Source: Patescibacteria group bacterium (GTDB lineage: Bacteria > Patescibacteriota > Microgenomatia > Daviesbacterales > UBA10151). Taken from it: a stretch of 64,000 nucleotides of DNA. Below the pieces are notes generated by a model that saw only the letters and a list, made by a program, of their open reading frames with translations, was not told the origin of the DNA and did no database searches. Positions 11,530 through 50,414 of this stretch are shown here, in pieces. How positions within the stretch are numbered: the first letter of the stretch is position 1; each line of letters begins with the position of its first letter. The DNA lies in assembly GCA_038064895.1 (NCBI GenBank), contig JBBTSA010000010.1, forward strand, positions 182,616 to 246,615, given 5' to 3'. Made by a program: the position numbers and the translations under genes.

Positions 11530-11640
11530 TTTAAGTTATGCAAAATTATATTAACTCTCCAGTATGTAAAGATCAATGAACTTAGCAATCAAGAAAAATA
11601 TTACTAAGCAATGAAATTTTAAAAATATCATATTTTAAAA

Positions 11641-33292: not shown

Positions 33293-33294
33293 GT

Positions 33295-34959
33295 TTAAAT
33301 CTTCCTAAAATACTTTAAACTTAAGCATAATGATACTAAAAATCCAAGTAATGAGGCAAAATCCAATGCAAGCTTATAGGGAGTTTCTGCAAAAAATACT
33401 TCCAGTTTATGTACTCCTTTAGGAACTAGAACGCTAATCTGGCCAAAAGGAGAGCCCGCTAATATATTTATATTCTTCCCATCCAGCTTAGCAAGCCAAC
33501 CCGGAAAATAATATTTATTAAAGTTTATTAAAGTTTCTTCATTTACATATACGCTTACAATAAAATGTAAATCATTGATTTTAATAACCGGGGCAATCGG
33601 ATTGCGCAGTGAAAAGATTATTGGATAAATCATATCAGGCCTTTGTTTGGAAGTTTTTGGCAGCCTTAAGTACTCTTCCTGATGCTGTAAATATTCCATA
33701 CTTACCTTTGGGTAGGGAATATATTTATTTAAATAATAGTCATCTAATCTTCCTAGAAAATGTTCAGGCTTAAAATATGACATTGTAGGATAAACTACAA
33801 AAGCCAAAAGAATAATTAAAATTATTTTTTCAAATTTCGACTTATCAAAAATAATAACAAGCAGGGGAATAAAAAAAGTTGTAAGAATTAAAAAACGCCA
33901 CGGAAATTGAAAGTATGGCATAAGCGGTAAACTATTCCATACAAAAGTTGATCTATGGTTTGTGAAAAAGATTGCAAGAAAAATCCCCGAACAAACCCAA
34001 ATAAATAATACCTTTTTGTCTTTGCTGATTCCTTTCCATTTCAAAAATAATAAGCCGGAGGCAAAAATTAGCACCAAAAGACTGGAATAGCCCAGAAAGA
34101 AAGACATTCCGTCTCCCTCGCCGGGAACCGATGCCCCGTAACCCCAATATGGGGTAAGAAGCTGTCGAATTGCAGGAAAATGATCATAAAACTTAAAGAT
34201 TGTGTCATATTTTACCAAGTTACTTTCTGTTATGGCCGGTAACCAAAAAAACGCGCTCATAAGTAGTGATAAAAAAATCATTAAAACCGATTTCCTAAAA
34301 AACACGCCTTTGTAGGATTCTTTCAAAAATTGTAAAAGAAGATAAAGTAAGACAAAAGGAATAAACATATATGCCGTAATATTGTGCGACAACACTAGGG
34401 AAGCAAGGGCTAGGGCTCCAATTCCTACCCACTTAAAATTTCTCTGCTGATTTAGCTTTGTTATTGATAAAATAACCAAAGGTAAAAATATAAAGCTTAA
34501 AACCTCCCCTATTGCTCCTCTTACATATAGGTCCACAGCCCTATAGGGTGTATAAATATATAAAAGTGCGCCTAAGAAAGATAAATTTGCCTTTACGAAT
34601 TCCCTAAGCAGAAGGTACATAAATATTCCGGACAGCGGTATAGTTATAAAAAATAATGCTTTGATACTATCAACAAATGAAAAACCGAAAAAAAGATGGA
34701 AAATTTCCGCAATATAAAATGGCAGTGGAAAAACAAAATTAAAAAGAGGATACCCGAAACCAAAACTCAAATCAGGAACAAACCGCGCAGGAATTTGTCC
34801 CAACTTTAACACTTTATCCATCTGGTTAAGCCAGGCGATATGCACTTCGTCCGAGGCCCCGTAAAAACCCGGCACAAAAAGCGCCCAAACAGCCGGTATG
34901 GAAAATACTAAAATTAAAAAGACCCAATATTTATTTAAAATTTTTTCTAATTTTTCCAT
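33295..34959 (-). CDS. 'CRWVPD' family paralog 2.
   Basis: 'SDEVHIAWLNQMDKVLKLGQIPARFVPDLSFGFGYPLFNFVFPLPFY'. Confidence 0.45.
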   Translation of the reverse strand: MEKLEKILNKYWVFLILVFSIPAVWALFVPGFYGASDEVHIAWLNQMDKVLKLGQIPARFVPDLSFGFGYPLFNFVFPLPFYIAEIFHLFFGFSFVDSIKALFFITIPLSGIFMYLLLREFVKANLSFLGALLYIYTPYRAVDLYVRGAIGEVLSFIFLPLVILSITKLNQQRNFKWVGIGALALASLVLSHNITAYMFIPFVLLYLLLQFLKESYKGVFFRKSVLMIFLSLLMSAFFWLPAITESNLVKYDTIFKFYDHFPAIRQLLTPYWGYGASVPGEGDGMSFFLGYSSLLVLIFASGLLFLKWKGISKDKKVLFIWVCSGIFLAIFFTNHRSTFVWNSLPLMPYFQFPWRFLILTTFFIPLLVIIFDKSKFEKIILIILLAFVVYPTMSYFKPEHFLGRLDDYYLNKYIPYPKVSMEYLQHQEEYLRLPKTSKQRPDMIYPIIFSLRNPIAPVIKINDLHFIVSVYVNEETLINFNKYYFPGWLAKLDGKNINILAGSPFGQISVLVPKGVHKLEVFFAETPYKLALDFASLLGFLVSLCLSLKYFRKI

Positions 34960-36595
34960 AAAAAATTAAATAACAAACCAAAAGAATAGAAACAAAAGAG
35001 ATAATATTGCCGGCTCTTCTTATGGGTGTATCATAAAATTTACCTAAAATTTTATGGTTGCCACCCTCAAGCATAATACTTACTCTACCTAAGTAATTAT
35101 CGGATCTTTGGTCAATCTCTTTCCCTTCCTCTGTTACTTTCCAGTTTGGAAAATCATATACGGGAAATTCGATCAAAGCAGGAGATTTAACACTTATTTT
35201 TGCCTCAAAATTATTGGAGGTTTTTTTAAAATAATAAATTTCCGCATCACCTGTTACAACAAGTGGTTTATCCCCTGTTTTCTCATTCGGCTCTATTGCT
35301 CCTTTTGGCAAATAATCCATGATTGATGCCTTCTGCTGTATCTCCCAAAGCTCCCCTGAAAGTTTTTCCCTATCGGTAAGGTAAGGATAAAATTTCTCGG
35401 GTTTAAAATAACCCCAGTTTAACAAAACCGTTGCTAAAACCAAAGCAAAAAAAGTTACCCTGACAAAGGAGGGTTTAAAAGTGTTAAAGAGAAATCCTGC
35501 CAAAAGGGAGGATGTAAAAATACTTAAAGATAGAAATCGCCAGGGAAATTGAACAAATCTTAACATCCCGATTGACTCCCAAATAAATGCCGATTTGTTA
35601 TGTGTCATAAAAAGCGAGAATGCAAAAAATACTAAAAGAGCAAAATATATAAAGAATATTCTCCTATTTTTTTTAAATAGCAAAGTAATAATGGATAGAG
35701 CTGCCAATATCCAGTGAGGCCAACCTACCTGGAAGGATATACTATCTAAAGGTCCCGGGAAAGATGCACCATATCCCCAGGATCTTTCAAAAAGTAATTG
35801 ACGAATCGTTACAAAATGTGCCCTAAAATCCAAGTCAAGCCTTACAAGATTCTCTATCTGCACCAGATCCTTTTCAAAAAAAGCAGGTATTATAAAAAAT
35901 GCCGATAGACCAACTCCTAAGCCTAACGAAAATATCAAAGACTTAATATAAACTACTTTTTTTCCCCAAAAAATTATTATAAACAAAACTAAAATTAGTG
36001 GTGCAAAAATAAGTGTCATGATGGTATGCGAAGTTAAGAATGCGGCAAATGAGAGGGCAAGACCTAATATAAATTTCAAAGAATTTTCCTTTAATATTTT
36101 AAGAGCAAAATAGATTACAAGGGGTATGACTACTATTGCAAAGCTTTCGGAAACAGCTCCCCGTACATAAATATCAAGAGCTCTATATGGAGCGAATATA
36201 TACAAAATAGATGCCAAAAGAGCAGGATACAAGGACATAAATTCTTTTGCTAAAAGAAACATTGAGAAGCCTGCAAAATATGCGGCTGCGAAAAATAAAA
36301 ATTTTGCACTCCCTACAAAGCCTAAAATATAGCTTGCCAAAGCGCCGATATAATACGGGAAAACATTATAATAGTTAAAAAGAGGGTAACCGTTTCCATA
36401 TCCCATGTCCGGAACCCACCTGCAAGGAATTTGCAAATCCGAAAAACACTTTCTCATCTCAAAAATCCTCATTACCTGCAAATCGTCATGATGTGAAAAA
36501 TAGCCGGATAAAAAAGTAGGCCAACTGACAAAGATAGATAGAACCGCGATGAAAATATAAAACCAATATTTTTTAAAAAAATTTTTTAAATCCAT
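34931..36595 (-). CDS. 'CRWVPD' family paralog 3.
   Basis: 'HHDDLQVMRIFEMRKCFSDLQIPCRWVPDMGYGNGYPLFNYYNVFPYY'. Confidence 0.45.
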   Translation of the reverse strand: MDLKNFFKKYWFYIFIAVLSIFVSWPTFLSGYFSHHDDLQVMRIFEMRKCFSDLQIPCRWVPDMGYGNGYPLFNYYNVFPYYIGALASYILGFVGSAKFLFFAAAYFAGFSMFLLAKEFMSLYPALLASILYIFAPYRALDIYVRGAVSESFAIVVIPLVIYFALKILKENSLKFILGLALSFAAFLTSHTIMTLIFAPLILVLFIIIFWGKKVVYIKSLIFSLGLGVGLSAFFIIPAFFEKDLVQIENLVRLDLDFRAHFVTIRQLLFERSWGYGASFPGPLDSISFQVGWPHWILAALSIITLLFKKNRRIFFIYFALLVFFAFSLFMTHNKSAFIWESIGMLRFVQFPWRFLSLSIFTSSLLAGFLFNTFKPSFVRVTFFALVLATVLLNWGYFKPEKFYPYLTDREKLSGELWEIQQKASIMDYLPKGAIEPNEKTGDKPLVVTGDAEIYYFKKTSNNFEAKISVKSPALIEFPVYDFPNWKVTEEGKEIDQRSDNYLGRVSIMLEGGNHKILGKFYDTPIRRAGNIISFVSILLVCYLIFYGKIRKNFK

Positions 36596-38249
36596 ATTTT
36601 ATGCTTAAAAAAGCAGTTAAGAAAAGGCTTACCAAGCTTATTATATTACCCAAAGATCTGACAGGAGTATCTTTAAGTTGTACTTCTATCTTGTGTTTTC
36701 CTTCCTCTATATTAAATGTTATCAATCCCAAACAATATTCTTCTCTCCTACAATCATTGTTTATGTGATGGATCAGCATCCCGTCCACCAAAACCTGCAT
36801 TCCGGGAAAATCAAAAAGCGGAAGCCGCAAAGTTGCCGCCTCTTTTACTAAAGCTTCTCCTTTTTGAAAATTGCTCCCTTTTTGATAACTTAAAAACTCT
36901 ACTTCCCCATCCAAAACATCAGGCAAAAGAGGTGCTTTTTCATTTGGAGGAAGTTTTGCAAAAATAGGTAAATAATCAAAAATGCTAATAGTTAGCTGCT
37001 TCTCCCAAGACTCACCGGAAAATTTATCCTTATCTGAAATATTTAACCATTCTTTTGGTTTAAAAAATGCCCCGTGTAATAAAATCAAAGAAAGAACTAC
37101 TACTAAAGTAAAAATAACTGCATAATTTTTGTTTAACTTTGAAATTAAAAAGGCCGAAATTGCGCCAAAGATAGAGAGTAAAAAAGCAGAGGGCACTAAA
37201 AACCTCCAGGGGAATTGTAACCACGCAAGAGTAGATATTTTTTCCCAAAAAAAGTAGGAGCGCTGATGCATTAAAAATAAATATATGGACTCTAAAGCAA
37301 AGAGCACCCACAAGGTTATGGAAAGTTTTTTGTATTTTTTGTAAAAGGTGAAGGATAAGAAAAGTGCCAATAAAGCAACTATCCAATGGACAATTCCCGC
37401 TGATAAAGAAACTTCATCAAAAAGACCAAAAACAGAAGATCCATAATCAAAATAATTTGAAAAAAGAAGTTGTTTAATGCTTACAAAGTGTTGCCTATAG
37501 TCAAAATACCCTCCAAGCAGTGTCTCAAGGTGTACATACTTCTTTTCAAAAATAAACGGCAAGATATAAAAAGCGGATAACCCTATCCCTAAAAGTACTC
37601 CGGAAATTATTTTGTAAAACATCTTCCATTTTTTTTCCAAACTTATTATTGTTAAAATCCAGACTAAAAGTATAGGGAGAAAAATAAGGGTTGTTAAATT
37701 GTGGGTTGTAATTAAAAGCGCTAATGAGACGGCAAGCCAAAGAAGATACTTTGTTTTCCCTATCCTTATAAGTTTTAGGGATGACCATAAAAGAAGCGGT
37801 AAAAATATGAAAGCTAAAAATTCACTCAAAGAACCTCTGACATATACCTGAACTGCTTTTACAGGAACTATTGTATAAAGAATTGATCCTAAACAAGCGG
37901 CATAGTCGTTTAAAAAAGATTTTAAAAAAATAAACATAGTCAGCGCGGAAAGTATAAAACCTAAAATAAAAAGAAGTTTTACCGAATCTATAATCTGTAT
38001 ACCAATCAGACTAAATATACCCCCTATATAATAAGGTAGAGGGGGATAATAGTTAAACTGTGGATAACCGTATTGATACCCCATGTCCGGAACCCACCTG
38101 CAAGGAATTTGAAAATCTTTTAAACAGGCAACCATCTGGTGAATCCTGAAAGCCTGAAGATCATCCTGCATTGGAAAAAAACCCGGCCTTAAAAGCTGGT
38201 AAAAAGTTAATAAATTAACCAAAATTGTTAAAATCAGCCAAAACCTCAT
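36573..38249 (-). CDS. 'CRWVPD' family paralog 4.
   Basis: 'MQDDLQAFRIHQMVACLKDFQIPCRWVPDMGYQYGYPQFNYYPPLPYY'. Confidence 0.45.
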   Translation of the reverse strand: MRFWLILTILVNLLTFYQLLRPGFFPMQDDLQAFRIHQMVACLKDFQIPCRWVPDMGYQYGYPQFNYYPPLPYYIGGIFSLIGIQIIDSVKLLFILGFILSALTMFIFLKSFLNDYAACLGSILYTIVPVKAVQVYVRGSLSEFLAFIFLPLLLWSSLKLIRIGKTKYLLWLAVSLALLITTHNLTTLIFLPILLVWILTIISLEKKWKMFYKIISGVLLGIGLSAFYILPFIFEKKYVHLETLLGGYFDYRQHFVSIKQLLFSNYFDYGSSVFGLFDEVSLSAGIVHWIVALLALFLSFTFYKKYKKLSITLWVLFALESIYLFLMHQRSYFFWEKISTLAWLQFPWRFLVPSAFLLSIFGAISAFLISKLNKNYAVIFTLVVVLSLILLHGAFFKPKEWLNISDKDKFSGESWEKQLTISIFDYLPIFAKLPPNEKAPLLPDVLDGEVEFLSYQKGSNFQKGEALVKEAATLRLPLFDFPGMQVLVDGMLIHHINNDCRREEYCLGLITFNIEEGKHKIEVQLKDTPVRSLGNIISLVSLFLTAFLSIKYGFKKFF

Positions 38250-38255
38250 AATAAA

Positions 38256-39734
38256 TTAAGGCAAAACTTGATATAAAACCGTAGCATCCCCTTTACCATA
38301 TAAAGGTTTAGCTTTGGGGTATTCTTTTATAAGTTTGACTGCTGAAAGACTACCTTCAAGGCTGTTTTTATTGCCCGCAAAGAAAGTTAAATTCTTGGAT
38401 GATGCTTCCCTTAATTGAGCTGAAATTGTGGCATGGGAGCCTATAACGGAAATCTCTTCTTTATCAAGATAAATATATAAACCATCAGGCAAGGTTCCAA
38501 AAAATCCTTCTGTACCAACAATCACTTTCCCCTCTTTTTTTCTTTCCACTAAGTAGGCTGCAATCTCTTTTAAGCCATATCCTGCTGTCCACATTTCAAA
38601 ATATCCTTTTCTTTCCTCTTGGGGTAAGGACTTTGGCGGAGGATTTGTCAAAAGCTCATAATCAAACCAGAGAGGAAGAGGTAGTAAAAGGATTAAAAGT
38701 AAGAAGGGTGAGATTTTTTTGGAAATTCTTTCTACTGCATATGCACCCAATATAAGAAGAAGGGGTATTGAAGGAAGTAAATACCTGGCTGTAAAAGTTC
38801 TAAGGAAAGCCATTTCTATAAGCAGTGGTATTGCTGCCCAAGCTAAAACCAACCACCCTAATCGATTTTTTGTCTTTACCAAAAACCACAAACCAACTAA
38901 CCAAGAAACAAGTATTGGCCAAGTAAATAATTTCGGGAACCAATCAACCATATCTCTAAAGTGTGGTATAAAAGGATCAAGAGGTCTACCTGCAAGTTCT
39001 AAAGGGGAAAAAAGATAATCTGCATTTCTTGAAGAAAGTAAATGAAAATTGGGTCCAAGCCTCAAAGCATTGTACAAAAAAACGGCAATAATTATTGCAA
39101 CTGCCCAAAATAAAAATAATTTCAAAAGAGCATATTTATCCCCTTTGATTCTTTTAAAAGCAAGTATTGATGCCGGCAAAAGTAATAGATTTAAAACAGC
39201 AGGAGTTTTAGTAAGCCAAGCTCCCCCAAGTATGAATCCTAAAATCATTGCCAGATCCAACCTGACCTTTTGAGCAAGCCATATAGCAAGAAATAAGGTC
39301 CAAACAGTAAATGCTGAAAGCATGGAATCAACAAGAGCCATTCTGTCAAAAAAAACAGTGTAAGGAACTAGGGAGTAAAGTAAAGCTGCCCAAAGGCCAA
39401 CACGTAAACTAAAGACTTTCCAACCTAAGGCAAATACACTAATCACTGTTGCAAATCCGCTAACCACAGACAAAAATCTTCCTGCAAATAAAGGATCTTC
39501 AAAAACTTTAAATAAAGGTATCATGCTCCACATAAACAGAGGTGTTTTACCATCTGAAAGTGGTAAAAATCTTAAAGTTGGCTCACTTCTCATAACTTGA
39601 GCCCATCTAATATAAATTCCCTCATCTGCAAAGATAGGCTGCAAAGTTAAGTTTGGAAGCCTTAAAAGAAAATAAACAGAAACTATAATAAGGAGGATTC
39701 CTATCTCTAGTCTGTGTTTTGTAATCAAGTTCAC
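38256..39734 (-). CDS. ArnT/PMT (COG1807)-like GT-C glycosyltransferase, a subfamily distinct from the 4915-16272 array.
   Basis: 'FADEGIYIRWAQVM' first-loop DE motif, ~12 TM helices, C-terminal soluble domain. GTG start. Confidence 0.6.
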   Translation of the reverse strand: MNLITKHRLEIGILLIIVSVYFLLRLPNLTLQPIFADEGIYIRWAQVMRSEPTLRFLPLSDGKTPLFMWSMIPLFKVFEDPLFAGRFLSVVSGFATVISVFALGWKVFSLRVGLWAALLYSLVPYTVFFDRMALVDSMLSAFTVWTLFLAIWLAQKVRLDLAMILGFILGGAWLTKTPAVLNLLLLPASILAFKRIKGDKYALLKLFLFWAVAIIIAVFLYNALRLGPNFHLLSSRNADYLFSPLELAGRPLDPFIPHFRDMVDWFPKLFTWPILVSWLVGLWFLVKTKNRLGWLVLAWAAIPLLIEMAFLRTFTARYLLPSIPLLLILGAYAVERISKKISPFLLLILLLPLPLWFDYELLTNPPPKSLPQEERKGYFEMWTAGYGLKEIAAYLVERKKEGKVIVGTEGFFGTLPDGLYIYLDKEEISVIGSHATISAQLREASSKNLTFFAGNKNSLEGSLSAVKLIKEYPKAKPLYGKGDATVLYQVLP

Positions 39735-39741
39735 CCTACTA

Positions 39742-40126
39742 TTGTACGTCCGTAAGCAACTAGAGGCAAGCTCTTTGGTGTATTATTTTATTATGGATAA
39801 AGAAATTGCTACATTTGGTACTGGCTGTGGTTGGCCATCCTTTGATGAGGAGCATCCTGATTCTTTAAAAAGACTTCCAGATCTCGAAGACCCTGAGCAA
39901 AGTCGTACTTCGATTCCACTCAGTACGACCCTGAGTGTTGATCGAATGGGTCGAAGGGCTGACTGGGGAAAGAGTGGAAATCCAATGTGCAAATTGTGGA
40001 GCACACCTTGGTCATGAATTTAAAGGGGAACATTTAACTTCAAAAAATACCAGACATTGCGTAAACTCCCTATCCATAAAATTTATCCCAAAAGATGAAA
40101 AACTACCTTCCATACTTGCCTCTTAA
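39742..40126 (+). pseudogene. msrB: msrB (peptide-methionine (R)-S-oxide reductase) remnant, N-terminally truncated and frame-disrupted.
   Basis: Frame 1 carries '...FGTGCGWPSFDEE'. A different frame from 39935 carries '[33 protein letters not shown]...[11 protein letters not shown]', the MsrB 'GCGWPSF...R.EV.C..C.AHLGHVF...RYC(I/V)NS' signature. Only ~15 codons precede GCGWPSF, where ~50 are expected. Confidence 0.6.
39853..39934. repeat. ~82-nt palindrome-containing insertion inside the msrB remnant.
   Basis: Deleting 39853-39934 joins '...GCGWPSFDEE' to '[18 protein letters not shown]' in frame, with spacing colinear to B. subtilis MsrB (19 residues between F and R-x-EV). The insert has the 8-bp inverted repeat agtcgtac/gtacgact and the direct repeat 'gaccctga' at 39888 and 39927. 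Confidence 0.35.
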
Positions 40127-40852
40127 ATCATTAATTCTAATTCTTACCATATCATAAATTGCAGCTGCTGCATCTTTAATAACCTGTACTCTTTCCGTAT
40201 CAACATATTTCCATTCCACATCCACTTCTGCAATTTTAAACCCATATTTTTTTGCCAAATATAAAATCTCCACATCAAATCCGGCATTGACTGCCCCACC
40301 TTTAAAATGAAGCACCCCCCACTCCCCTTTTATTTTTGGAATAATTTTTCCAACTACCTTTTTATTAAAAGCCTTAAACCCGCACTGTGTATCTTTAAAT
40401 GAAAGCCCAAGAATAAGTCCTCTTAATATAGAGAAAGACCATGCTGCAAATTTCCTAACTGCCGGTGCTCCCGCTCTTCCATGTCTTAAGCCAATAACCA
40501 AATCAAAACCTTCTTCAAGCTTTGGAATAAATTTATCCATTTGATCAATTGGTGTTGCCTGATCCATATCTGTAAATAAAACTATGTCTCCTCTTGACTC
40601 CTCCATACCTCTCATAACTGCCATTGCCTTTCCTCCATGGGAAACTTCTATCAATTTCCACCGCTTTTTTCCTTTGATGAAGTTTTCTATCAATCCTTTT
40701 GTTTGATCTTCCGATCCATCATCAACAATAACTACTTCATAACTTACTCCACTTTTCTCCATATATTCTTCCACCTCATTTAGTACTCCCTTCCTCAAAT
40801 TTCTCTCCTCATTATATGCGGGTATTACTAAAGACAAGTTAATAGTTTTCAT
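40103..40852 (-). CDS. GT2 polyprenyl/dolichyl-phosphate sugar synthase (DPM1/ArnC-like).
   Basis: '[14 protein letters not shown]...[12 protein letters not shown]...FTDMDQATP...[11 protein letters not shown]'. Confidence 0.75.
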
Positions 40853-40855
40853 TTT

Positions 40856-43000
40856 TCAGTTTTTAACTTTTAATTCTTCAGGATTATGTATCAATTTGTA
40901 AATTCTTACTCCATTTACTTCCCACTCCTTTTCAACTATTGCCCATCCAAAGTGGGAAATTTCCTGTTTAGGATGACCTACAGGGTTGCAAACAGGATCC
41001 TCACAAACAACAAAAAGCTGATCTGTTTTTGTAAAAGGTAATTGCTGTGGTTTATGTCCAAACTCATCCAAATAAAACTGGTAAGACGGATCATAATTTC
41101 TTTCTGCTAGTAAAGCAAAATTAAAGGGTCTATACTCCGATTGTTCAATGATAAACTTTGCAACATCCTTGGCTCTTCCAAGTTGATTATTTGGAGGATT
41201 TTTAAGAGGACTCTTTTCAAGATTAAGAAAAATAAGAGTTATGATTAGAAGTCCTAAAATAAGAGTTTTAAATTTTTTTGATATTTTAAGAGTTGCCAAT
41301 GAGCCAAAAAGAAGAAAGGGCACAGGATTTAAAAATCCCAAATAATGATCGTAGATGTCCTTTTGGTAAAAAGAAACTCCTAGAAGTCCTACAATAAGCC
41401 ATACCCCCAAAGCAAATGTTGGCCAGCTTTTTCTGAAAAGGGCTAAAAGTATTAGAATTGATAGAATTAAAGCAAGCTGCATATTTTCCCCAGCCATATA
41501 TCTTCCTATTAAGTTTTCCGAAAAAATTTGAGGGATCTTTTTAAAATTTTCAAATATGTTCCCTGAAACTGCGTTTGAAGTTGTAAAAAACTCCCTTATT
41601 GCTCTGTAATTTAAAAAATTGTGTTTAAGGTCAAACATTAAAAGTGGCGACATTACAACTAAAAATACAACTACTGCTCCTACAGTCCCCTGCCAAAAAT
41701 ATCTCCCCTTTTTTGTAATAAATTCAAAAATCCAAAAAATCCCAAGTATCGGAAGCAAAATTAATGCAAGGTAATGCATTTGTAAAGCCGCAGCGGCGGA
41801 TGCTCCTGTTAAAATTAACCACCTCGAATTCCCTGTGGAATGAGCTTTATAAAAACCTAATACCGCAAGTAATGCAAAAAAGGGAGTGGGATTAGGATTC
41901 CAGGAAAAATTTGAATAATTTATTGTCACGGGTGATATTGCGTAAAAAAAACTTGCAATAAGTCCGCTCATCCTTCCAAACCAAACTTTCCCAAAGTAGT
42001 ATATTAGAAATACACAAGTAACTCCAATTAAAGCATTCATTACGGAAGCCGAAACGGGGTTGAGGTTTGTTAGTACCATGGGTATAAACATCATGTAATA
42101 ATAGAGAGGCCCCAAATAAATATTTCCTACGGATGATGGGGGACCAATGGCTGGAAAATTTTTACCCTTCACCATATCTTGAACAATCAAAACATCTCTG
42201 CCCTCATCACCTAAAAATAGCATGTACTCATCTATTCTATAAAGACGAAAGAAAGCGGCCAGAACTAAAACACCTATTAGAAGTAAAAAAAGAAATTTTT
42301 GATCCTTCAGTTTCCACCAAAGCCTTAAAAGATCAACATACGAGCGGATAATTACTGTAAGAGTTGCACCGGTTGGCTTTCCTGAAAGTCTTGGATAATG
42401 ACTAACCCCAACTTGCGCAATTTTAAATCCGGCCTTTTTTACCTTTATTGCAAGTTCCGCATTTATCATTGCCCCACGGGTTGACTCAAGATGAGGAATT
42501 TTCTCTAAAACATTTTTTTTAATCATCTTAAAACCGCAGTCAACATCTCTAAATGTTAATCCAAAGAATATAAAAAGTGAGGCCTTCCAGCCTTTTTTAA
42601 ATAAAATCCGCAAATATGGATCCTGCCTTTTAATGCGGTATCCCAGGATAAGATCATGCTCTTCAATTTTTTCTAAAAATTTTTCAACTTCCGCAAAATC
42701 AAACTGTCTGTCTCCATCCGTATAACAAACAGTGTCGTATTTTGCATTATAAAACCCCGATTTTAATGCTTCTCCATATCCTAAATTTTTCTCATGATGA
42801 ATTACTTTAATCTTGGGATTGTCTTCGGAAAGCCTATCTGCTATTTGTCCTGTTTTATCTGATGAACCATCATCAATAAGCAAAATCTCATAATCTATTT
42901 TTAAATTATTTAATACAGAAATTGCTTTTTCTACACTTTGCTGAACGTTTCCTTCCTCATTATATAGAGGGAAAAATACAGATAGATTTTTAACTGGCAT
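40856..43000 (-). CDS. Bifunctional fusion: N-terminal GT2 polyprenyl-phosphate sugar synthase (~230 aa) plus C-terminal ArnT/PMT-like GT-C membrane glycosyltransferase (~480 aa).
   Basis: N-terminus 'LSVFFPLYNEEGNV...LLIDDGSSDKT...YTDGDRQ...FRDVDCGFKMI'. C-terminus multi-TM 'LFLGDEGRDVLIVQDMV...YYFGKVWFGRMSGLIASFFYAISPVTINYS', homologous to 48909-50414 and 61763-63238. Confidence 0.65.
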   Translation of the reverse strand: MPVKNLSVFFPLYNEEGNVQQSVEKAISVLNNLKIDYEILLIDDGSSDKTGQIADRLSEDNPKIKVIHHEKNLGYGEALKSGFYNAKYDTVCYTDGDRQFDFAEVEKFLEKIEEHDLILGYRIKRQDPYLRILFKKGWKASLFIFFGLTFRDVDCGFKMIKKNVLEKIPHLESTRGAMINAELAIKVKKAGFKIAQVGVSHYPRLSGKPTGATLTVIIRSYVDLLRLWWKLKDQKFLFLLLIGVLVLAAFFRLYRIDEYMLFLGDEGRDVLIVQDMVKGKNFPAIGPPSSVGNIYLGPLYYYMMFIPMVLTNLNPVSASVMNALIGVTCVFLIYYFGKVWFGRMSGLIASFFYAISPVTINYSNFSWNPNPTPFFALLAVLGFYKAHSTGNSRWLILTGASAAAALQMHYLALILLPILGIFWIFEFITKKGRYFWQGTVGAVVVFLVVMSPLLMFDLKHNFLNYRAIREFFTTSNAVSGNIFENFKKIPQIFSENLIGRYMAGENMQLALILSILILLALFRKSWPTFALGVWLIVGLLGVSFYQKDIYDHYLGFLNPVPFLLFGSLATLKISKKFKTLILGLLIITLIFLNLEKSPLKNPPNNQLGRAKDVAKFIIEQSEYRPFNFALLAERNYDPSYQFYLDEFGHKPQQLPFTKTDQLFVVCEDPVCNPVGHPKQEISHFGWAIVEKEWEVNGVRIYKLIHNPEELKVKN

Positions 43001-43022
43001 GGTAATATGCTAACATCAAATT

Positions 43023-44171
43023 ATGAACAAAACAACGAAAAACCTTGGTTTAATAGCAATTTTAACTTTCATCATAACCATAACTATCTGGCTGCCTCAC
43101 ATTTTAGCTCTTCCCAATTTTTGGGGACTAAATTTTTCAAACGGCTTTGCGTCAGTTTATAGAAATTTTGACGGTTTGGAATATATTGTTATTGCAAAAA
43201 GTTTTTATAATCCCGAAATTATAAAAGATTTCCCCTATTCTTTAAATCCAAATTATTATGCCTCCCACTTTCCGGGTTATGCTCTCCTTATTGCCCTTTT
43301 TGCACCCTTTTTAGGATACCTTAAATCCATGCTTGCTGTTTCTTTCTTATCAACAATACTTGCTACTTGGGCTTTCTATTTACTGGTACGCGATTTTAAG
43401 CTTACTGCAAATCCCCTTCTTCTTTCATTAATTTTTCTAATTTTACCTGCACGCTGGCTAATAGTTCATTCTGTAGGATCTTCCGAACCAACCTTTATAT
43501 TACTTTTAATAATGGCTGTTTATTTTTTTATGAAGTTTGAAACATCAGGTAAATTCTCCTTCTTAACTTTGTCCGGCCTTTTTGGTGCAACTTCACAACT
43601 GACAAGACCTCCCGGGATTTTGCTTATGACTGCATTAGGACTCTATATATTATGGCGTTTTTTAAAAAAACGTTCCCTTTCTTATATATTTTCATTTTAT
43701 CCGCTCCTTTTTATTCCTCTTACACTTTTAGGAATTTTCTACTTTTACTTACTTACTTATCAGGATTTTTTTGCTTATTTTCACAGTGGAGATAATATTC
43801 ATTTAACTTTCCCCCCATTTCAGGTTTTCAACAAGGATCAATTTTGGGTAGGAGAGGCTTGGCTTGAGGATATTATCTATATTTTTATATTGGGTTTTCT
43901 GGCATCTATAATGCTACTTAAGCAAAAACTTTATGTTTTTGCATTTTTTGTATTGACATACCTTACAGCATCAACATTCATTGCACATCGTGACATCTCA
44001 AGATATTTGCTTCCCATAACTCCTTTTGTCTTAATTGCCTTTGAGAAAGTTTTGGTGAGTAAGGAATTTAAAATTATCTTACCTATTATTGCTTTGGCAA
44101 TATATCTTTATGCTCAAAATTTTATTCTCCAAAATACTGCTCCAATTCCAAACCTACAACTTTATAACTAA
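43023..44171 (+). CDS. Polytopic membrane protein, GT-C-like (tentative).
   Basis: 382 aa, ~10 TM helices, loop 'YRNFDGLEYIVIAKSFYNPEII'. Divergent from 40856-43000 with only a 22-nt gap. Confidence 0.35.
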   Translation: MNKTTKNLGLIAILTFIITITIWLPHILALPNFWGLNFSNGFASVYRNFDGLEYIVIAKSFYNPEIIKDFPYSLNPNYYASHFPGYALLIALFAPFLGYLKSMLAVSFLSTILATWAFYLLVRDFKLTANPLLLSLIFLILPARWLIVHSVGSSEPTFILLLIMAVYFFMKFETSGKFSFLTLSGLFGATSQLTRPPGILLMTALGLYILWRFLKKRSLSYIFSFYPLLFIPLTLLGIFYFYLLTYQDFFAYFHSGDNIHLTFPPFQVFNKDQFWVGEAWLEDIIYIFILGFLASIMLLKQKLYVFAFFVLTYLTASTFIAHRDISRYLLPITPFVLIAFEKVLVSKEFKIILPIIALAIYLYAQNFILQNTAPIPNLQLYN

Positions 44172-44172
44172 T

Positions 44173-45357
44173 CTAATCCTCTTGATGTCTCCAGGTTACT
44201 AAATGATTCACCATAAAATTCCAAATCATAACAGGTGGGATTGTTGCAAAGAAATAAAAATTATTATATGCAATCTTTCTCCATCCCAGATCCACAAATC
44301 CATCTCCATAAGTTAAATGTAAAAATTTAACTATCAATACCCCTATTATTAGACCTCCTAGACTGACCAAGTTGAAAATTCCAAGCTTTTGCCAAAAAGA
44401 GGTTTTGGTTTTTCTGTATCTGAAAGTCCAAAAATTATTCAATATAAAATTATTTACAATCGCAATCTCTGTTGAAATCCCTTTTGATGTTGCAGGAGGA
44501 AAACCTAAAGCATTTATAAAAACTTTGTAAAAGAAAAAGTCAACCAGAGTACCTGTAAATCCAACAAGCCCGAATTTAACAGGGGTTTTGGCTCTTCTGC
44601 TTATCTTAAATAGAGGTATCTTTATTCCCAACTGTTTAAATTTTGCATCAAGACAGTATGTAATTACATCATAAGTATAGTTGAAAACTTTATTTTTGGA
44701 ATATCCCTCAAGACGGTTTTTGAAAATTAAGGGAACCTCTTTATATTTTGCGCCGGATAAAATTGCCTCATGTAAAAAAGCAGGCTGCACTATAAAAGTC
44801 TTTTCTCTCCAAGGAAGCCTATGTAAGTTAATCTTTTTGAAAAGTGCAGGGGTAAAAGCTCTTGCCGAATTTGTAAACTCTTTTATGTCGGACGGACCCA
44901 TTACAACCCTGCAAAAGGCTGATGCACCATAAGTAAAAAGTCTACGCCCGAAAGTAAGCTGATTTTTCCCACCCTCTACAAACCTTGAACCAATAGCCAG
45001 GGTGTAACCTTCCTCTATTGCTTTTATAAGCCTTACTAAAACATCCGGAACAACCTGTCCGTCTGCATCAAGTTGGGCAAGTATATTGGGTTTAAGTTTC
45101 TCTATAGAATATTTGTGTCCTAAAATAAGCCCTGCTCCCAAACCAGGATCTACTTTGAGAAGATGGATTCTTTTATTTTTACTTACCAAACCTCTTACAA
45201 TCTCATCGGTTCCATCAGAAGTCCTGATATCATCGCAAACAACTATATGAATTTCATATCCTTCCAAAATCTTTGCTTGCTCTAAAACTTTTTCAATGGT
45301 TTGGGCAATATTTGCTCTTTCGTTAAAGGTGGGTAAAACTACCGATACTATCTTCAT
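44173..45357 (-). CDS. GT2 (DPM1-like) fused to a C-terminal GtrA-like membrane domain.
   Basis: 'VSVVLPTFNERANI...HIVVCDD...QLDADGQ'. C-terminus 'GLVGFTGTLVDFFFYKVFINALG...IVNNFILNNFWTFR' carries the GtrA signature. Confidence 0.7.
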   Translation of the reverse strand: MKIVSVVLPTFNERANIAQTIEKVLEQAKILEGYEIHIVVCDDIRTSDGTDEIVRGLVSKNKRIHLLKVDPGLGAGLILGHKYSIEKLKPNILAQLDADGQVVPDVLVRLIKAIEEGYTLAIGSRFVEGGKNQLTFGRRLFTYGASAFCRVVMGPSDIKEFTNSARAFTPALFKKINLHRLPWREKTFIVQPAFLHEAILSGAKYKEVPLIFKNRLEGYSKNKVFNYTYDVITYCLDAKFKQLGIKIPLFKISRRAKTPVKFGLVGFTGTLVDFFFYKVFINALGFPPATSKGISTEIAIVNNFILNNFWTFRYRKTKTSFWQKLGIFNLVSLGGLIIGVLIVKFLHLTYGDGFVDLGWRKIAYNNFYFFATIPPVMIWNFMVNHLVTWRHQED

Positions 45358-46373
45358 CAGGAAAACTTTGCAAGATCCGAGTGAACCATAACTTTCACTA
45401 AATCCTTAAATTTAGTCTTTGGCTCCCATCCTAAAACTTTTTTGGCCTTCGAGGCATCCCCGCATAGCGGACCTGTTTGTACAGGAGGAATAAAATGAGG
45501 GTCTGTCACAACAAAATCTTTCCAGTCTAAATTAACAACAGAGAAAGCTTGTTCTGCAAATTCTTTAACGCTGTGAGTTTCACCTGTTGCTATAACAAAA
45601 TCATCAGGTTTATCTTGTTGCAACATCATCCACATAGCTTCAACATAATCGGGCGCATATCCCCAATCCCTTTTTGCATCCAAGTCCCCAAGCTTTAACT
45701 TACCGTTTTTTACAATCGGCTCGCCTATTTCATTTAAAGGTATCTCTTCTTTTTTACCGTTTTTAATACAGGCAACTGCTGCAGTTATTTTTCTTGTAAC
45801 AAAATTTAAACCCCTTCTTGGGCTTTCATGATTAAATAAAATCCCGCAGGAAATAAATTGTGGACTCTTGCGATCCGATCTTGCAATTTGCGCCATTCTG
45901 TGAGCAAACTCTTTGGAAGCAGCATAAGGATTCGTAGGATTAAAAGGGGTATCTTCATTTTGCGGACTTTGTTTTGGTATACCAAACATTTCCGATGTGG
46001 ATGCCTGATAGATTTTTGCATCCGGAACAATCTGTTTTGCCCGTTCAAATACATGAAGAGCTCCAACACCTGTTATCATAATTGATGCAAATTTGTCCGT
46101 AAAAGATCCCAAAGGCGAAGATAAAGAAGCAAGATTATAAATCTCACCGGGCTTAAAATCCAAAAGTGCAAGTGCTATGGATTCGGGAGATTGCAGGTCA
46201 CCATAATATATCTTTACCTCTTCTTTAATCTCGTCAATGTTTCCAAGATCGGAAACAGCAGTTCGTCTAACTAACCCTGCAACTTCATATCCTTTACCCA
46301 ATAAAAACTCCGTCAGGTATGAGCCGTCCTGACCCGAGATTCCTGTTATGAATGCCCTTTTGTTACTTGCCAT
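45357..46373 (-). CDS. gmd: GDP-mannose 4,6-dehydratase.
   Basis: 'KRAFITGISGQDGSYLTEFLLGKGYEVAGLVRR' and 'YAASKEFAH' (YxxxK) match the Gmd N-terminus. C-terminal 'DASKAKKVLGWEPK'. Confidence 0.8.
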   Translation of the reverse strand: MASNKRAFITGISGQDGSYLTEFLLGKGYEVAGLVRRTAVSDLGNIDEIKEEVKIYYGDLQSPESIALALLDFKPGEIYNLASLSSPLGSFTDKFASIMITGVGALHVFERAKQIVPDAKIYQASTSEMFGIPKQSPQNEDTPFNPTNPYAASKEFAHRMAQIARSDRKSPQFISCGILFNHESPRRGLNFVTRKITAAVACIKNGKKEEIPLNEIGEPIVKNGKLKLGDLDAKRDWGYAPDYVEAMWMMLQQDKPDDFVIATGETHSVKEFAEQAFSVVNLDWKDFVVTDPHFIPPVQTGPLCGDASKAKKVLGWEPKTKFKDLVKVMVHSDLAKFS

Positions 46374-46399
46374 AATCTTTTGTTACTATACCTAATTCT

Positions 46400-47287
46400 C
46401 TAATCCTTTTCAATCTCCTGTCTAAAAACTTTAATATTTTCTTCAACTGTTGCTAAAATCCCATCTCCAAACTCCCTAATAAACTTGGTGGGATCAAGCC
46501 ACGAGTACTTAAGTATTGGAGCCTTTTTATCTTTGTTGTATTCATCCAAAGTAATAGGCTCTACTAAAGATGCGTCTAAATTAAATTCTTTTGCCAAAAG
46601 TTTTGCAAACTCAAAAGGGGTAGTCCAATTTGTCGATACAACATGAAATAATCCCGGTGGCCTTTTTTTAATAATGGCAAACAAAGCATTAGCTACATAT
46701 TCAACAAAAATGGGAGTTACTCTTGCATCCGATATTGCTTTTATCTTACGGTTACGGTTTAATTGCTCCAGGAAAAATCTTGCAATATCCTTTTTTAATT
46801 CGTAGTGCGGGCTAAAAGGCATTGCAATCCGAACTATACTAAACTTACAACCGCTATTTAAAACTTCCTGCTCTGCAAAATATTTTGTTTGCCCGTACCA
46901 ATTTTTAGGATCAGGCGTATCCTCTTCCGTATACGGTGCATCCGATTTCGTACCGTTGAAAACGTAATCTGTAGATATGTGAATTAAATAAACACCTTTT
47001 TTACTGCAAGCATCTGCAATATTTTTTGCGCCCCTGACATTAATCAGGTAACAGAGTCCACTCCTACCTCCTTTCTGCTCTTCAGCCCCCTGCACATTTG
47101 TAAATGCTGCGAAATTAACAGTGACATCAGGTCTAAAATCTTCTAAAGCTAAGTCAAGTTGATCTTTATTTAATATATCAACCTCATTAATAAGAGGGGC
47201 TTTTATTAGAAACTTACTCCTATAAATTTTGATAAAATGGGAACCAACTAAGCCGCTCCCTCCAAAAACCAGCAGTCTAGTTTCCAT
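46400..47287 (-). CDS. rmlD: dTDP-4-dehydrorhamnose reductase.
   Basis: 'LLVFGGSGLVGSH...FRPDVTVNFAAFT...HISTDYVFNGTK...YGQTKYFAE' resembles the RmlD substrate-binding family. Adjacent to rmlC and rmlB. Confidence 0.75.
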   Translation of the reverse strand: METRLLVFGGSGLVGSHFIKIYRSKFLIKAPLINEVDILNKDQLDLALEDFRPDVTVNFAAFTNVQGAEEQKGGRSGLCYLINVRGAKNIADACSKKGVYLIHISTDYVFNGTKSDAPYTEEDTPDPKNWYGQTKYFAEQEVLNSGCKFSIVRIAMPFSPHYELKKDIARFFLEQLNRNRKIKAISDARVTPIFVEYVANALFAIIKKRPPGLFHVVSTNWTTPFEFAKLLAKEFNLDASLVEPITLDEYNKDKKAPILKYSWLDPTKFIREFGDGILATVEENIKVFRQEIEKD

Positions 47288-47835
47288 TATTTGAATCTCT
47301 TCGGGAATAGGTCTCTAAGATAAGGATTCTTTCTATCCCTTTGTGAAATAATTGGATTGGAAATAGGCCATTTTATTGCTAAATCCGGATCATCCCAGGC
47401 AATGGCCCTGGTATCACGACCATCCCAGTAAGCATCCACTAAATATGCATAATCTACTCCTTTTTCTCCTGTGACACAAAAAGAATTAGCAAGTCCAATC
47501 GGTACAAAAAGTCCTATCCTCCTTTCATCATTAATTTTAAAAGTTTCTACCTTGGCAAAGGTAGAGGAGTTTTCTCTTAAATCAACTATTGCAATAAATA
47601 CTTCTCCGGAAAGCGGATAAATAATTTTGTTCCACTCCTCGGCGTGAATACCTCTAATTACTCCGGGGATGGAATAAGAATGATTCATTTGCACCGGTTC
47701 AAACTTTATGCCTAAGAAATTTTCCAAATCATCTTTTCGAAACAATTCTCTAAAAAAACCTCTCTTATCTTTAAAGATCGGTCTTTCTAAAATTAAAAGT
47801 CCGTCAATTGAAGTTTTTTTAATAAAATCTGCCAT
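47287..47835 (-). CDS. rmlC: dTDP-4-dehydrorhamnose 3,5-epimerase.
   Basis: 'IDGLLILERPIFKDKRGFFRELF...IRGIHAE', cupin RmlC signature. 182 aa. Confidence 0.8.
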   Translation of the reverse strand: MADFIKKTSIDGLLILERPIFKDKRGFFRELFRKDDLENFLGIKFEPVQMNHSYSIPGVIRGIHAEEWNKIIYPLSGEVFIAIVDLRENSSTFAKVETFKINDERRIGLFVPIGLANSFCVTGEKGVDYAYLVDAYWDGRDTRAIAWDDPDLAIKWPISNPIISQRDRKNPYLRDLFPKRFK

Positions 47836-47836
47836 C

Positions 47837-48841
47837 TTAGCCTTTGTATGACTTTTGCGCTACTCTGTCAACATTTGGCCTGCCTTTTTTTAAAGGCTTC
47901 CACCACCACGCATTCTTTTTATACCACCTAACAGTTTCTAAAAGCCACTCATCAAATGGATGTGCCGGCTGCCAGCCTAAACTCTTAAGTTTACGATCGT
48001 CTATAGCATATCTAAAATCATGACCTAATCTGTGTCCCACATTTTCTATCCAGGACTCATCTTTTTCTAAAATCTTAAGAATTTTTTTTGCAACTTCTAT
48101 ATTTGTTTTTTCCTCCCCGCCAACACAGTAAGTTTCTCCCAACTCACCTTTTTGTAAAACCGTATCTATTGCCCTTGAGTGATCATCAACATATAGCCAG
48201 TCCCTGATATTTTCTCCTTCACCCATAAGTGGTACTTTTTTACCTTCAAGCAAATTTGTAATAAAACGGGGGATAAGTTTCTCGATATCCTGATAAGGAC
48301 CAAAATTATTTGAACAGTTTGTAATAGTGATCGGTAAACCGTAAGTTTGGTAATATGATCTTACTAAATGATCCGATCCTGCCTTTGAAGCAGAGTATGG
48401 AGTTCGGGGTGAATATGGGGTATTTTCATTAAATGGAGGATCTTTCGGACCTAATTGTCCAAATACTTCATCTGTTGATATATGATGAAATCTTTTTACT
48501 TTTGTATCCAAGGCAGCGTTTAGTAAAACCGCAGTACCTAAAACATTTGTTCTTACAAACTGCAGGGGATCAATGATTGACCTATCAACATGTGATTCTG
48601 CCGCAAAGTGAACAACTAAGTCCATACCTTCCATAGCTTTTCCAACAAATGCCTCATCACAAATATCTCCTTTAATAAAACTATAGTTTGGATTAGTCTT
48701 AAGATCCTTAAGACTTTCCAAATGTCCGGCATATGTTAATGCATCCAGGTTAACAATTTGATCTTGAGGATGATACTCCAACCAGTAATGGATAAAATTA
48801 GATCCAATAAATCCGGCTCCGCCTGTCACTAAAATTTTCAT
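47837..48841 (-). CDS. rmlB: dTDP-glucose 4,6-dehydratase.
   Basis: 'MKILVTGGAGFIGSNFIHYWL...NLDALTYAG...YSASKAGSDHLVRSY'. Confidence 0.8.
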   Translation of the reverse strand: MKILVTGGAGFIGSNFIHYWLEYHPQDQIVNLDALTYAGHLESLKDLKTNPNYSFIKGDICDEAFVGKAMEGMDLVVHFAAESHVDRSIIDPLQFVRTNVLGTAVLLNAALDTKVKRFHHISTDEVFGQLGPKDPPFNENTPYSPRTPYSASKAGSDHLVRSYYQTYGLPITITNCSNNFGPYQDIEKLIPRFITNLLEGKKVPLMGEGENIRDWLYVDDHSRAIDTVLQKGELGETYCVGGEEKTNIEVAKKILKILEKDESWIENVGHRLGHDFRYAIDDRKLKSLGWQPAHPFDEWLLETVRWYKKNAWWWKPLKKGRPNVDRVAQKSYKG

Positions 48842-48908: not shown

Positions 48909-50414
48909 ATGAGAAAGAACTTAAAACTTATTTTAATCATTTTAATTATAGGAGCGGTATATAGATTAAGTCTTACCTCAAACGGTAATTTTCTTTTTAA
49001 CATGGATAACGCGCGGGATATGGTTGATGTTAGAGAAATGGTTGAGACTTCTAAATTAAGATTAATTGGCCCAACCTCGGCAATTGAAGGCTTTTATAAT
49101 GGGCCGGCCTGGTATTATCTTTTGGCAATTCCATATATTTTATCTGGCGGTGATCCTTATGCATCAATCCTTATGGAAATTGCTCTTTGGGCTTTGGGAG
49201 GTTTTTTCTTAATATTTTTGGTTAAAGATTTTGGGAAGTTGGCAGCAGTTTCTGCCGGCTCTTTATGGATTTTATCAAACTATGTAGTTTTAACAACCTC
49301 ATATGCGTTTAACCCAAATCCAATTCTTTTCCTAACACCTCTTTTTATATTTTTTTTAAAGAAATACTTGGAAACTGAAAAGTTAGTTTTCTCTTTAGGG
49401 ATATTTTTATTGGCAGGATTATTTTTTAACTTTGAGATGAACTTTGGAGTATTTATACCCCTAGTTTTAATTTTTTCTGTATTTTTATCTGGAAAAAGAA
49501 ATATTTTTAAGAGTAAAAATTTCTGGCTGGGAGTTTTTATTTATCTCCTAACTTTAATGCCTCAAGTTGCCTTTGATATAAAACATAACTTTATAATGTC
49601 TAAATCTGTTATCAAATATTTAAGTGCAGGTAGCCCTGATCAAATAATTAACCCAATTAAAAGATTACCCTTAATTTCTGAGAAGTTTTTTAATGTTACC
49701 GTTCCAACGTTTATGAATCATCAATTTTTTACAAAATTACTGACTTATATTTTTTTTATGTCTTTGTACCTTTTCATTAAAAGAGGACATTGGAATAAGA
49801 ATTTAACAGTTTTAATTACATTACTTTATATACTCATACCATTCTTGGGGTATGTACTACTTCCCACAACTGTTAATCCTTGGCATTTAGGGGGAGTTGT
49901 TGCTGCAATAATTTTACTTTTTAATCTGCAATTTTTAGGAAGGCTTCCTACCTTGATTTTGTCTATTTTTGTCATCTATTTTGCTTTGATAAATATCAAT
50001 AACTATTTTAAAGAAAGGAGTATTCCAAGTAACGACCCATCAGTTTATAAAAATGAAGTTGCGGCAATAGATTATGTTTACAAAAAAGCAGAAGGTAAAA
50101 ATTTTAGTGTCTATACATATCTCCCTTCTGTTTACGATTATCCATATCAGTATTTATTTTGGTGGTATGGTAAAAAAACCTATGGATATATTCCCGGAGA
50201 ATATGTATATTCTCCAAACAAACCTCAATATATACCAAGCCAGGATAAATTCCAGGGATCTAAGAAAAATTACTCGGGTTTGGTTTTTTTAATTAAAGAA
50301 CCGGACAGAATTAAAATGAGACAAGCTTGGGAAAATGATTATAAAGATATGGAATTTATTTCCAAAGAAATGATTGGACCAATAGAGGTAGAGATTAGGA
50401 AAGAGAAGATGTAA
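48909..50414 (+). CDS. ArnT/PMT-like GT-C membrane glycosyltransferase, same subfamily as the C-terminus of 40856-43000.
   Basis: 'FNMDNARDMVDVREMVE...GPAWYYLLAIPYIL...FNPNPILFLTPLFIFF', multi-TM plus a C-terminal soluble domain. Confidence 0.55.
   Translation: MRKNLKLILIILIIGAVYRLSLTSNGNFLFNMDNARDMVDVREMVETSKLRLIGPTSAIEGFYNGPAWYYLLAIPYILSGGDPYASILMEIALWALGGFFLIFLVKDFGKLAAVSAGSLWILSNYVVLTTSYAFNPNPILFLTPLFIFFLKKYLETEKLVFSLGIFLLAGLFFNFEMNFGVFIPLVLIFSVFLSGKRNIFKSKNFWLGVFIYLLTLMPQVAFDIKHNFIMSKSVIKYLSAGSPDQIINPIKRLPLISEKFFNVTVPTFMNHQFFTKLLTYIFFMSLYLFIKRGHWNKNLTVLITLLYILIPFLGYVLLPTTVNPWHLGGVVAAIILLFNLQFLGRLPTLILSIFVIYFALININNYFKERSIPSNDPSVYKNEVAAIDYVYKKAEGKNFSVYTYLPSVYDYPYQYLFWWYGKKTYGYIPGEYVYSPNKPQYIPSQDKFQGSKKNYSGLVFLIKEPDRIKMRQAWENDYKDMEFISKEMIGPIEVEIRKEKM

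Follow-up and report, generated by a model that had tools for sequence, protein, structure and literature searches.

We analyzed a 64,000-nt stretch of DNA (the window) from a Patescibacteria group bacterium of the lineage Daviesbacterales (contig JBBTSA010000010.1, positions 182,616 to 246,615) and concentrated on one gene of its minus strand, 40856..43000, in which a GT2 synthase domain is followed by a GT-C transferase domain. The open reading frame (ORF) of this fusion starts with ATG, has no internal stops and encodes 714 aa plus the stop codon. Pfam searches identified Glycos_transf_2 at aa 7-168 (E 1.7e-27) and PMT_2 at aa 298-454 (E 2e-11, 44.8 bits vs. a cutoff of 26.1), and homologs aligned over the full length. 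The GT2 half comprises aa 1-230 and the GT-C membrane enzyme aa 235-714. A full-length AlphaFold model of the protein reached a predicted local distance difference test (pLDDT) score of 84 and a predicted template modeling (pTM) score of 0.78, the latter lending weak support to a defined interface between the two modeled domains.

The GT-A/GT2 catalytic domain (aa 1-213; 42362..43000, on the minus strand like all elements of the fusion described below) is predicted to be cytoplasmic and was classified by PDB sequence matches, fold and NCBIfam. The solved structures closest to the GT2 half by sequence were those of ArnC (5e-16), GtrB/sll0501 (3e-13) and Pyrococcus DPMS (PfDPMS, 4e-13), and the alignment with PfDPMS reached aa 254, thus running through the juxtamembrane helices. 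ArnC, DPMS and GtrB were also the top fold matches of this half in the full-length model (E 4e-12 to 1e-9), all three being polyprenyl- or dolichyl-phosphate sugar synthases, and ArnC was the top NCBIfam match. These consistent matches in sequence and modeled fold point to a polyprenyl-phosphate glycosyltransferase of the ArnC/GtrB/DPMS kind. The putative metal/nucleotide-sugar DXD motif, D95-G-D97, followed by Q99 (42710..42718), aligns to the "DADLQ" of ArnC and GtrB. These three residues are invariant in 35 fused homologs, together with D44, R122/K124/R125/D127 and D152/D154.

Two helices of the GT2-half model, aa 129-146 and 214-231, are amphipathic and match the interface helices of the polyprenyl-phosphate synthase class. 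The second of them (LTVIIRSYVDLLRLWWKL; 42308..42361), delimited by the model helix and hydropathy, concludes the GT2 half. This half has no transmembrane (TM) helices of its own; the next helix after about aa 231 is TM1 of the GT-C fold (aa 235-253; 42242..42298; hydropathy 2.39, coinciding with a model helix), which is the sole membrane anchor available to it. In this respect the GT2 half resembles the class of DPM1, GacI and Ppm1, which needs a membrane partner; DPM1/DPM3 and GacI/GacJ are parallels for a TM-less enzyme working with such a partner. As the GT2 half lacks a membrane helix, the GT-C has to hold it at the membrane as well, either through the covalent link or within a complex. 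We therefore infer that the GT-C partner doubles as the membrane anchor of a TM-less synthase and that both act as one physical unit.

The GT-C membrane domain (aa 235-595; 41216..42298) contains about 11-13 helices and was recognized by PMT_2, its fold match to ArnT and its motifs. Modeled alone with an 80-sequence alignment, the GT-C half gave a pLDDT of 96.6 and a pTM of 0.94. Its fold matches at E ≤ 0.001 were exclusively GT-C glycosyltransferases, with ArnT (5f15) first (E 2.7e-9, TMq 0.63), followed by AglB, STT3, PglB, ALG12, Pmt4 and AftD. In the full-length model, too, the C-terminal half matched ArnT by fold. When its single sequence was compared with solved structures, no match under E = 0.01 was obtained. 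At the level of the modeled fold, the GT-C assignment of the C-terminal half is secure.

Conservation within the GT-C half is concentrated in several motifs. The first outer loop carries FLGDEGRD (aa 262-269; 42194..42217), conserved across 80 family members, and further motifs are SWNPNP (aa 366-371; 41888..41905), Q407/H409/Y410, F456-D457-x-x-H460 and D551-H552-Y553. D265, G286, P298, N368 and H409 are invariant in the 80 members, which share 26-52% identity, and G264, G267, R268, D269, W367, Q407, Y410, F456 and H460 are at least 90% conserved in them. GT-C enzymes have a catalytic acidic residue in the first loop after TM1, the position in which D265 sits, and by its place in the sequence D265 is a candidate for the catalytic or metal-binding Asp. 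The protein ends with an alpha/beta domain (aa 596-714; 40859..41215), delimited by model secondary structure and invariant columns and predicted from the topology to be extracytoplasmic, whose Cys pair C666/C671 (VVCEDxxC) is invariant in the 35 homologs. With the helices taken from the model and the positive-inside rule applied, the loops KKGRY (430-434), LFRKS (521-525) and LKISKKFK (571-578) come out as cytoplasmic, which would place FLGDEGRD, SWNPNP, QxHY, FDxxH, DHY and the Cys-pair domain on the outer face. With the GT2 domain before TM1 and the GT-C motifs predicted outside, the sidedness is right for donor synthesis inside and transfer outside. A sequence-only reading of this gene had proposed a GT2 polyprenyl-phosphate-sugar synthase joined to an ArnT/PMT-like GT-C domain, with the two acting on opposite faces of the membrane; both domain assignments and the predicted topology agree with it.

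That reading had also left room for a frameshift or a lost stop codon merging two adjacent genes through an assembly or sequencing error. Relatives exist in which the two halves are overlapping genes in different frames, so that a single-base error could merge them. Yet a protein 100% identical to the fusion was found on three contigs from three sources (NCBI, Logan and ENA), and at least 120 clusters (at 90% identity) of proteins 60-74% identical to it span 96-100% of its length with both Pfam domains. We also scanned one genome for each species and examined the ORFs from stop to stop; in 40 related loci, almost all of species-representative genomes and produced by various studies with various assemblers, one ORF ran across both halves. 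In 35 homologs the protein sequence of the linker, LWWKLKDQK-x-LF, is conserved, and the fused Daviesbacteria sequences form one clade. An artefact is thus effectively excluded, and the fusion is conserved across many genomes. Named relatives of the protein belong to Candidatus Daviesbacteria, and public databases hold such proteins under generic names, e.g., "MAG: glycosyltransferase".

Two observations concern the labels and state of individual loci. One 1.8-kb contig labeled Candidatus Buchananbacteria (L037, 272-1828) carries a fused gene with an in-frame stop within the GT2 part; its ORFs 272-790 and 791-1828 share the same frame, and it may be a pseudogene, a sequencing error or a mis-binned fragment. 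Many loci titled "uncultured Gammaproteobacteria bacterium" (L004, L009-L011 and others) are of Daviesbacteria type, with the same synteny and 60-66% identity, and these titles look like placeholder labels rather than true taxonomy.

Comparison of the GT-C half with 1.84 billion representative proteins yielded 507 relatives at E ≤ 1e-30. Most were about 500 aa long and apparently standalone, and approximately nine were fused, mostly 700-740 aa, their N-terminal parts being homologous GT2 domains. For all four "standalone" sisters that we looked up, a gene of 232-240 aa lay directly upstream on the same strand, at distances of 51, 4, -10 and 6 nt; a GT2 Pfam match is recorded for the three of these genes with a Pfam look-up, all but that of P0183. 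Among the loci with both halves, 40 were fused and 16 split-adjacent, mostly in different reading frames, and according to the locus comparison the two genes are always adjacent or fused, i.e., obligately associated. The split loci include Woesebacteria, Shapirobacteria and other Microgenomates. Tblastn alignments covering query residues 3-706 made Woesebacteria and Shapirobacteria loci appear fused; the ORF and frame check showed split adjacent genes there. The split GT2 genes encode no membrane helix and end directly after the amphipathic helix (…DLFKLWxKLR*). The distance from the GT-C ATG to the GT2 stop in split loci was -1, -4, -4, -4, -10, -16 and -19 nt, and occasionally +6 to +51. Judged from the sequence, such an overlap of the GT2 stop with the GT-C start is the mark of translationally coupled genes, and one indel would be enough to join the pair.

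A bootstrapped neighbor-joining tree of the GT-C halves indicated that the fused and split states have been exchanged repeatedly. The fused Daviesbacteria sequences grouped together (81%), and their sister was a split clade (87% for the two combined). Elsewhere, the fused Beckwithbacteria protein P0173 grouped with the split P0183 (100%), the split P0145 with the fused P0178 and P0158 (90%), and two fused loci, L035 and L036, were placed among split Woesebacteria-type genes (96%). With such mixed clades, at least four switches between the states are needed. In a sparser neighbor-joining tree, the split P0122 had fallen among the fused Daviesbacteria; the denser bootstrapped tree moved it to the split sister clade, so that fusion appears to have happened once in Daviesbacteria. 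In the fusion, a conserved GT2-to-GT-C gene pair that occurs across Microgenomates, where it is usually coupled in translation, takes covalent form. The modular mixing of synthase and transferase suggested by the sequence-only reading was borne out in this form, as the same GT2 and GT-C are either fused or adjacent (mostly overlapping) and have switched state repeatedly.

The fusion is part of a conserved cassette. Downstream of it, starting 3 nt after its stop, is a GT2 gene of 249 aa without TM segments (40103..40852, minus strand; Pfam, hydropathy) that is syntenic in nearly all relatives. It is followed by the next conserved member, a GT-C gene (PMT_2/PMT, 492 aa; 38256..39734, minus strand; Pfam, synteny). 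In the window these two genes are separated by a 368-nt gap (39735-40102), and in many Daviesbacteria loci their homologs abut (e.g., L006, with hits from 8166 and 8916). On the other side, the plus strand encodes a divergent polytopic membrane protein of 382 aa (43023..44171) with TM segments and a weak PMT_2 match (25.3 bits, just under the cutoff); its homologs adjoin the cassette from Daviesbacteria to Woesebacteria with 41-72% identity. The starts of this gene and of the fusion are only 22 nt apart (43001-43022), a spacer that leaves no room for ordinary divergent promoters, and the head-to-head pair is kept in nearly all related loci (41-45% identity in Woesebacteria). Then follow a minus-strand gene for a GT2 with a GtrA_DPMS_TM domain (394 aa; 44173..45357; Pfam, synteny), which has the architecture of a full-length polyprenyl-phosphate sugar synthase of the PfDPMS type, and, upstream, minus-strand nucleotide-sugar genes (45357..48841; Pfam, synteny), namely two dehydratase/epimerase genes, RmlD and RmlC. 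From Daviesbacteria to Woesebacteria the gene order is kept: nucleotide-sugar genes, GT2 with GtrA_DPMS_TM, the 382-aa GT-C-like gene, the GT2/GT-C unit, GT2 and GT-C. The G+C content of the window is 31-40%. In a promoter scan of 39.6-45.5 kb, the counts of promoter-like sites did not differ from those in shuffled sequences, and a terminator scan of the same region gave a modest excess of terminator-like sites, none of them informative for the cassette.

The sequence-only reading had further listed nearby homologs of both halves. BLASTP confirmed relatives of the GT-C half at 48909-50414 (E 1.4e-20) and 61763-63238 (E 6.8e-12), both with 23% identity; PMT_2 scored above the cutoff in the former and below it in the latter. 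The nearby GT2 genes 40103-40852, 776-1582 and 44173-45357 are 32%, 27% and 29% identical to the GT2 half, respectively. The claim of a GtrA at 44173-45357 held insofar as a GtrA_DPMS_TM domain is present; this TM domain is of the PfDPMS type and belongs to a full-length synthase, so that it need not be a flippase.

The cassette lies in a larger glycan-assembly island (window 2816-50414 plus 61763-63238) with about 19 GT-C-like membrane genes including the fusion, of the types PMT_2, PMT, PTPS_related/YfhO, PIG-V-like and PIG-M/GT87-like. A run of GT-C paralogs of about 500 aa occupies 9874-16272 and 31586-39734. The island also holds six GT2 genes besides the fusion, one GT4 gene, two Wzx-like flippase genes and dTDP-rhamnose genes. 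Five ORFs, mostly large, gave no Pfam match at E ≤ 0.01 (7525-9207, 24638-26650, 26647-30129, 9197-9874 and 50786-52012; 560, 670, 1160, 225 and 408 aa, respectively); all but the last lie within the GT-C run, and these ORFs may encode unrecognized membrane glycosyltransferases or surface proteins. An RmlA-like nucleotidyltransferase and a further epimerase/dehydratase are encoded at 59178-60833, beside the GT-C paralog 61763-63238 and about 10 kb from the RmlC/RmlD block (46400-47835). Between these blocks are housekeeping genes for TsaE, an M23/PcsB-like peptidase, FtsX, an FtsE-like ABC ATPase and a release factor.

Considering the sequence and model data, we regard it as fairly probable that the fusion is a two-enzyme membrane protein by which a lipid-linked sugar is made inside and transferred to an acceptor outside. 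The GT2 half would take a sugar from a nucleotide-sugar and load it onto polyprenyl phosphate at the inner leaflet. The lipid-linked sugar would then cross the membrane, and the GT-C half of the same polypeptide would transfer it to an extracytoplasmic acceptor, which could be a wall polymer, a surface protein or a lipid; the freed polyprenyl phosphate would return for the next round. The conserved synteny with nucleotide-sugar genes and with further GT2 and GT-C genes supports a functional linkage. Candidates for a flippase are the GtrA_DPMS_TM domain of 44173-45357 and the products of the two Wzx-like genes, 30122-31582 and 1542-2828, which are 10 kb and 38 kb from the fusion.

Several points weigh against this assignment. 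The activities, the sugar and the acceptor are inferred from sequence and models, and the host organism is uncultured. Every NCBIfam score of the GT2 half is far under the equivalog cutoff, for which reason no sugar specificity can be assigned from NCBIfam, and similarity within GT2 cannot alone separate polyprenyl-phosphate synthases from other GT2 enzymes. As the profile of the 80-sequence GT-C family matched no solved structure by sequence, the assignment of the C-terminal half relies on a modest Pfam score and on the fold. The conserved cassette has no dedicated small GtrA-type flippase gene. Finally, the two activities are not always retained together. The GT-C motifs are kept in all distant full-length fused representatives, and the GT2 motifs as well in seven of eight; in the remaining one, P0155 (736 aa), the GT2 half is degenerate (DXD changed to ADA, DVDCGFK to GVGVGLE) and the GT-C half retains LADEGRD, SWNPN and other motifs. 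The GT2 half of P0155 may be a decaying or purely structural synthase domain.

Two other assignments of the halves have to be weighed against the two-enzyme protein. By analogy with Agl22/Agl23, the GT-C-like half could be an anchor or activator, possibly a translocator, of the GT2 synthase, with another GT-C of the island performing the transfer. The absence of TM helices from the GT2 half and its split orthologs, and hence their need of a membrane partner, would fit such a role, for which GacI/GacJ and Ppm1/Ppm2 are precedents; moreover, the cassette lacks a dedicated GtrA gene and about 18 other GT-C-like genes of the window could carry out the transfer. NCBIfam TIGR03663, "flippase activity-associated protein Agl23", matches aa 241-538 (E 5.5e-11), and purified Agl23 has been described, in the accessible text, to translocate a lipid-linked glycan (PMC11182771). 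The TIGR03663 match, however, scores 42.1 bits vs. a cutoff of 126.25, so that the C-terminal half is not a member of the Agl23 family, and the significant fold matches of this half are all catalytic GT-C transferases. The anchor role also leaves unexplained the invariant outer-loop Asp, the other motifs predicted to face outward and the conserved C-terminal domain with its Cys pair; these features argue against a purely structural or flippase role, although they are compatible with a dual one. We consider the anchor role unlikely.

The second assignment, which we find rather unlikely, takes the GT2 half for an ordinary GT2 that extends a glycan on the cytoplasmic face and the GT-C for a ligase, polymerase or oligosaccharyltransferase acting on a polyprenyl-diphosphate-linked glycan. 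It would agree with the two Wzx-like flippases of the window and with the fold neighbors that follow ArnT, i.e., the oligosaccharyltransferases AglB, STT3 and PglB. The GT2 half also has weaker NCBIfam matches to PgaC, TuaG, EpsE and PglI-type GT2, all far under their cutoffs, but ArnC, GtrB and DPMS are consistently the best, with the DPMS alignment extending to aa 254, and the small domain with its amphipathic interface helices fits the synthase class. In addition, ArnT, the best fold match of the GT-C half, uses a monophosphate donor. As an elaboration of the two-enzyme protein, the GT2-GT-C unit might run a self-contained carrier cycle, i.e., make, conduct and transfer the sugar and recycle the carrier with no separate flippase, which we deem improbable. 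In such a cycle the lipid-linked sugar would pass through the GT-C membrane domain itself, by analogy with what is reported for the distantly similar Agl23. Bacteria of the candidate phyla radiation (CPR) are generally regarded as minimal in lipid metabolism, and a self-contained cycle would suit them.

The passage of lipid-linked monosaccharides from the inner to the outer leaflet is the least understood part of bacterial, archaeal and endoplasmic reticulum glycosylation. The natural fusion, together with the toggling between fused and overlapping genes, is an argument that the synthase and the transferase described here operate as a single physical unit. The fusion is a single-chain, well-modeled target for structural and reconstitution work on coupling, flipping and carrier recycling. 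As a "Rosetta stone", it also assigns one particular GT2 to one particular GT-C within a 64-kb island with about 19 GT-C-like genes, and opens a first way into how Microgenomates, which cannot yet be grown, build their surface glycans.

In the searchable literature we found no description of a natural GT2-GT-C fusion; the fusions mentioned there were GacJ-GacI or engineered constructs. The closest functional analogs are three-component systems, such as GtrA/GtrB/GtrC of Shigella phages, ArnC/ArnE-F/ArnT, CsbB/GtcA/YfhO and GacI-J/GacK/GacL, which likewise combine an inner-face GT2 synthase with an outer-face GT-C, the two being genetically linked and near nucleotide-sugar genes. They differ in that the synthase described here has no TM helices and is fused or translationally coupled to the GT-C, and in that its cassette contains no dedicated small flippase gene. 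Whereas GtrB and ArnC have two C-terminal TM helices and PfDPMS four, the GT2 half has none. The N-terminal half is matched best by ArnC in both sequence and fold, and the C-terminal half in fold by ArnT (about 21-23% and 14% identity, respectively, in fold-search alignments); ArnC and ArnT are separate proteins, however, and here both parts form one polypeptide. To our knowledge, lipid A is not an expected acceptor in a CPR bacterium. In strict family terms, neither half of the fusion belongs to ArnC, ArnT or Agl23.

Outside the CPR, the GT2 half is most closely related to 250-aa GT2 genes of Ktedonobacteria (40-43% identity), followed by a GT-C gene (PMT_2 plus YkcB_C, Bacillus ykcC/ykcB type) in two of the three loci inspected; there the genes are separate, the GT-C is of another subfamily (YkcB_C) and no fusion was seen. 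Agl22/Agl23 of Haloarcula hispanica resemble our system in pairing a GT2 dolichyl-phosphate hexose synthase with a polytopic partner that is weakly similar to the C-terminal half. According to the accessible text, purified H. hispanica Agl23 translocated M5GN2-PP-Dol in liposomes, and flipping of hexose-P-Dol was proposed (PMC11182771). This pair differs in being archaeal and in that Agl23 is described as a flippase, and the accessible text mentions no fusion. With regard to gene architecture, a precedent is Ppm1, a TM-less polyprenyl-phosphate mannose synthase that is, depending on the lineage, fused to or encoded beside a polytopic membrane enzyme: Ppm1 (Rv2051c) is fused in M. tuberculosis, while ppm2/ppm1 are split in M. 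smegmatis and C. glutamicum (PMC3460810). The partner of Ppm1 is an Lnt acyltransferase located N-terminal to the synthase; here it is a GT-C, located C-terminal, and is expected to consume the product of the synthase. What is new is the fused or split GT2-GT-C unit and not the principle, which is that of the three-component systems.

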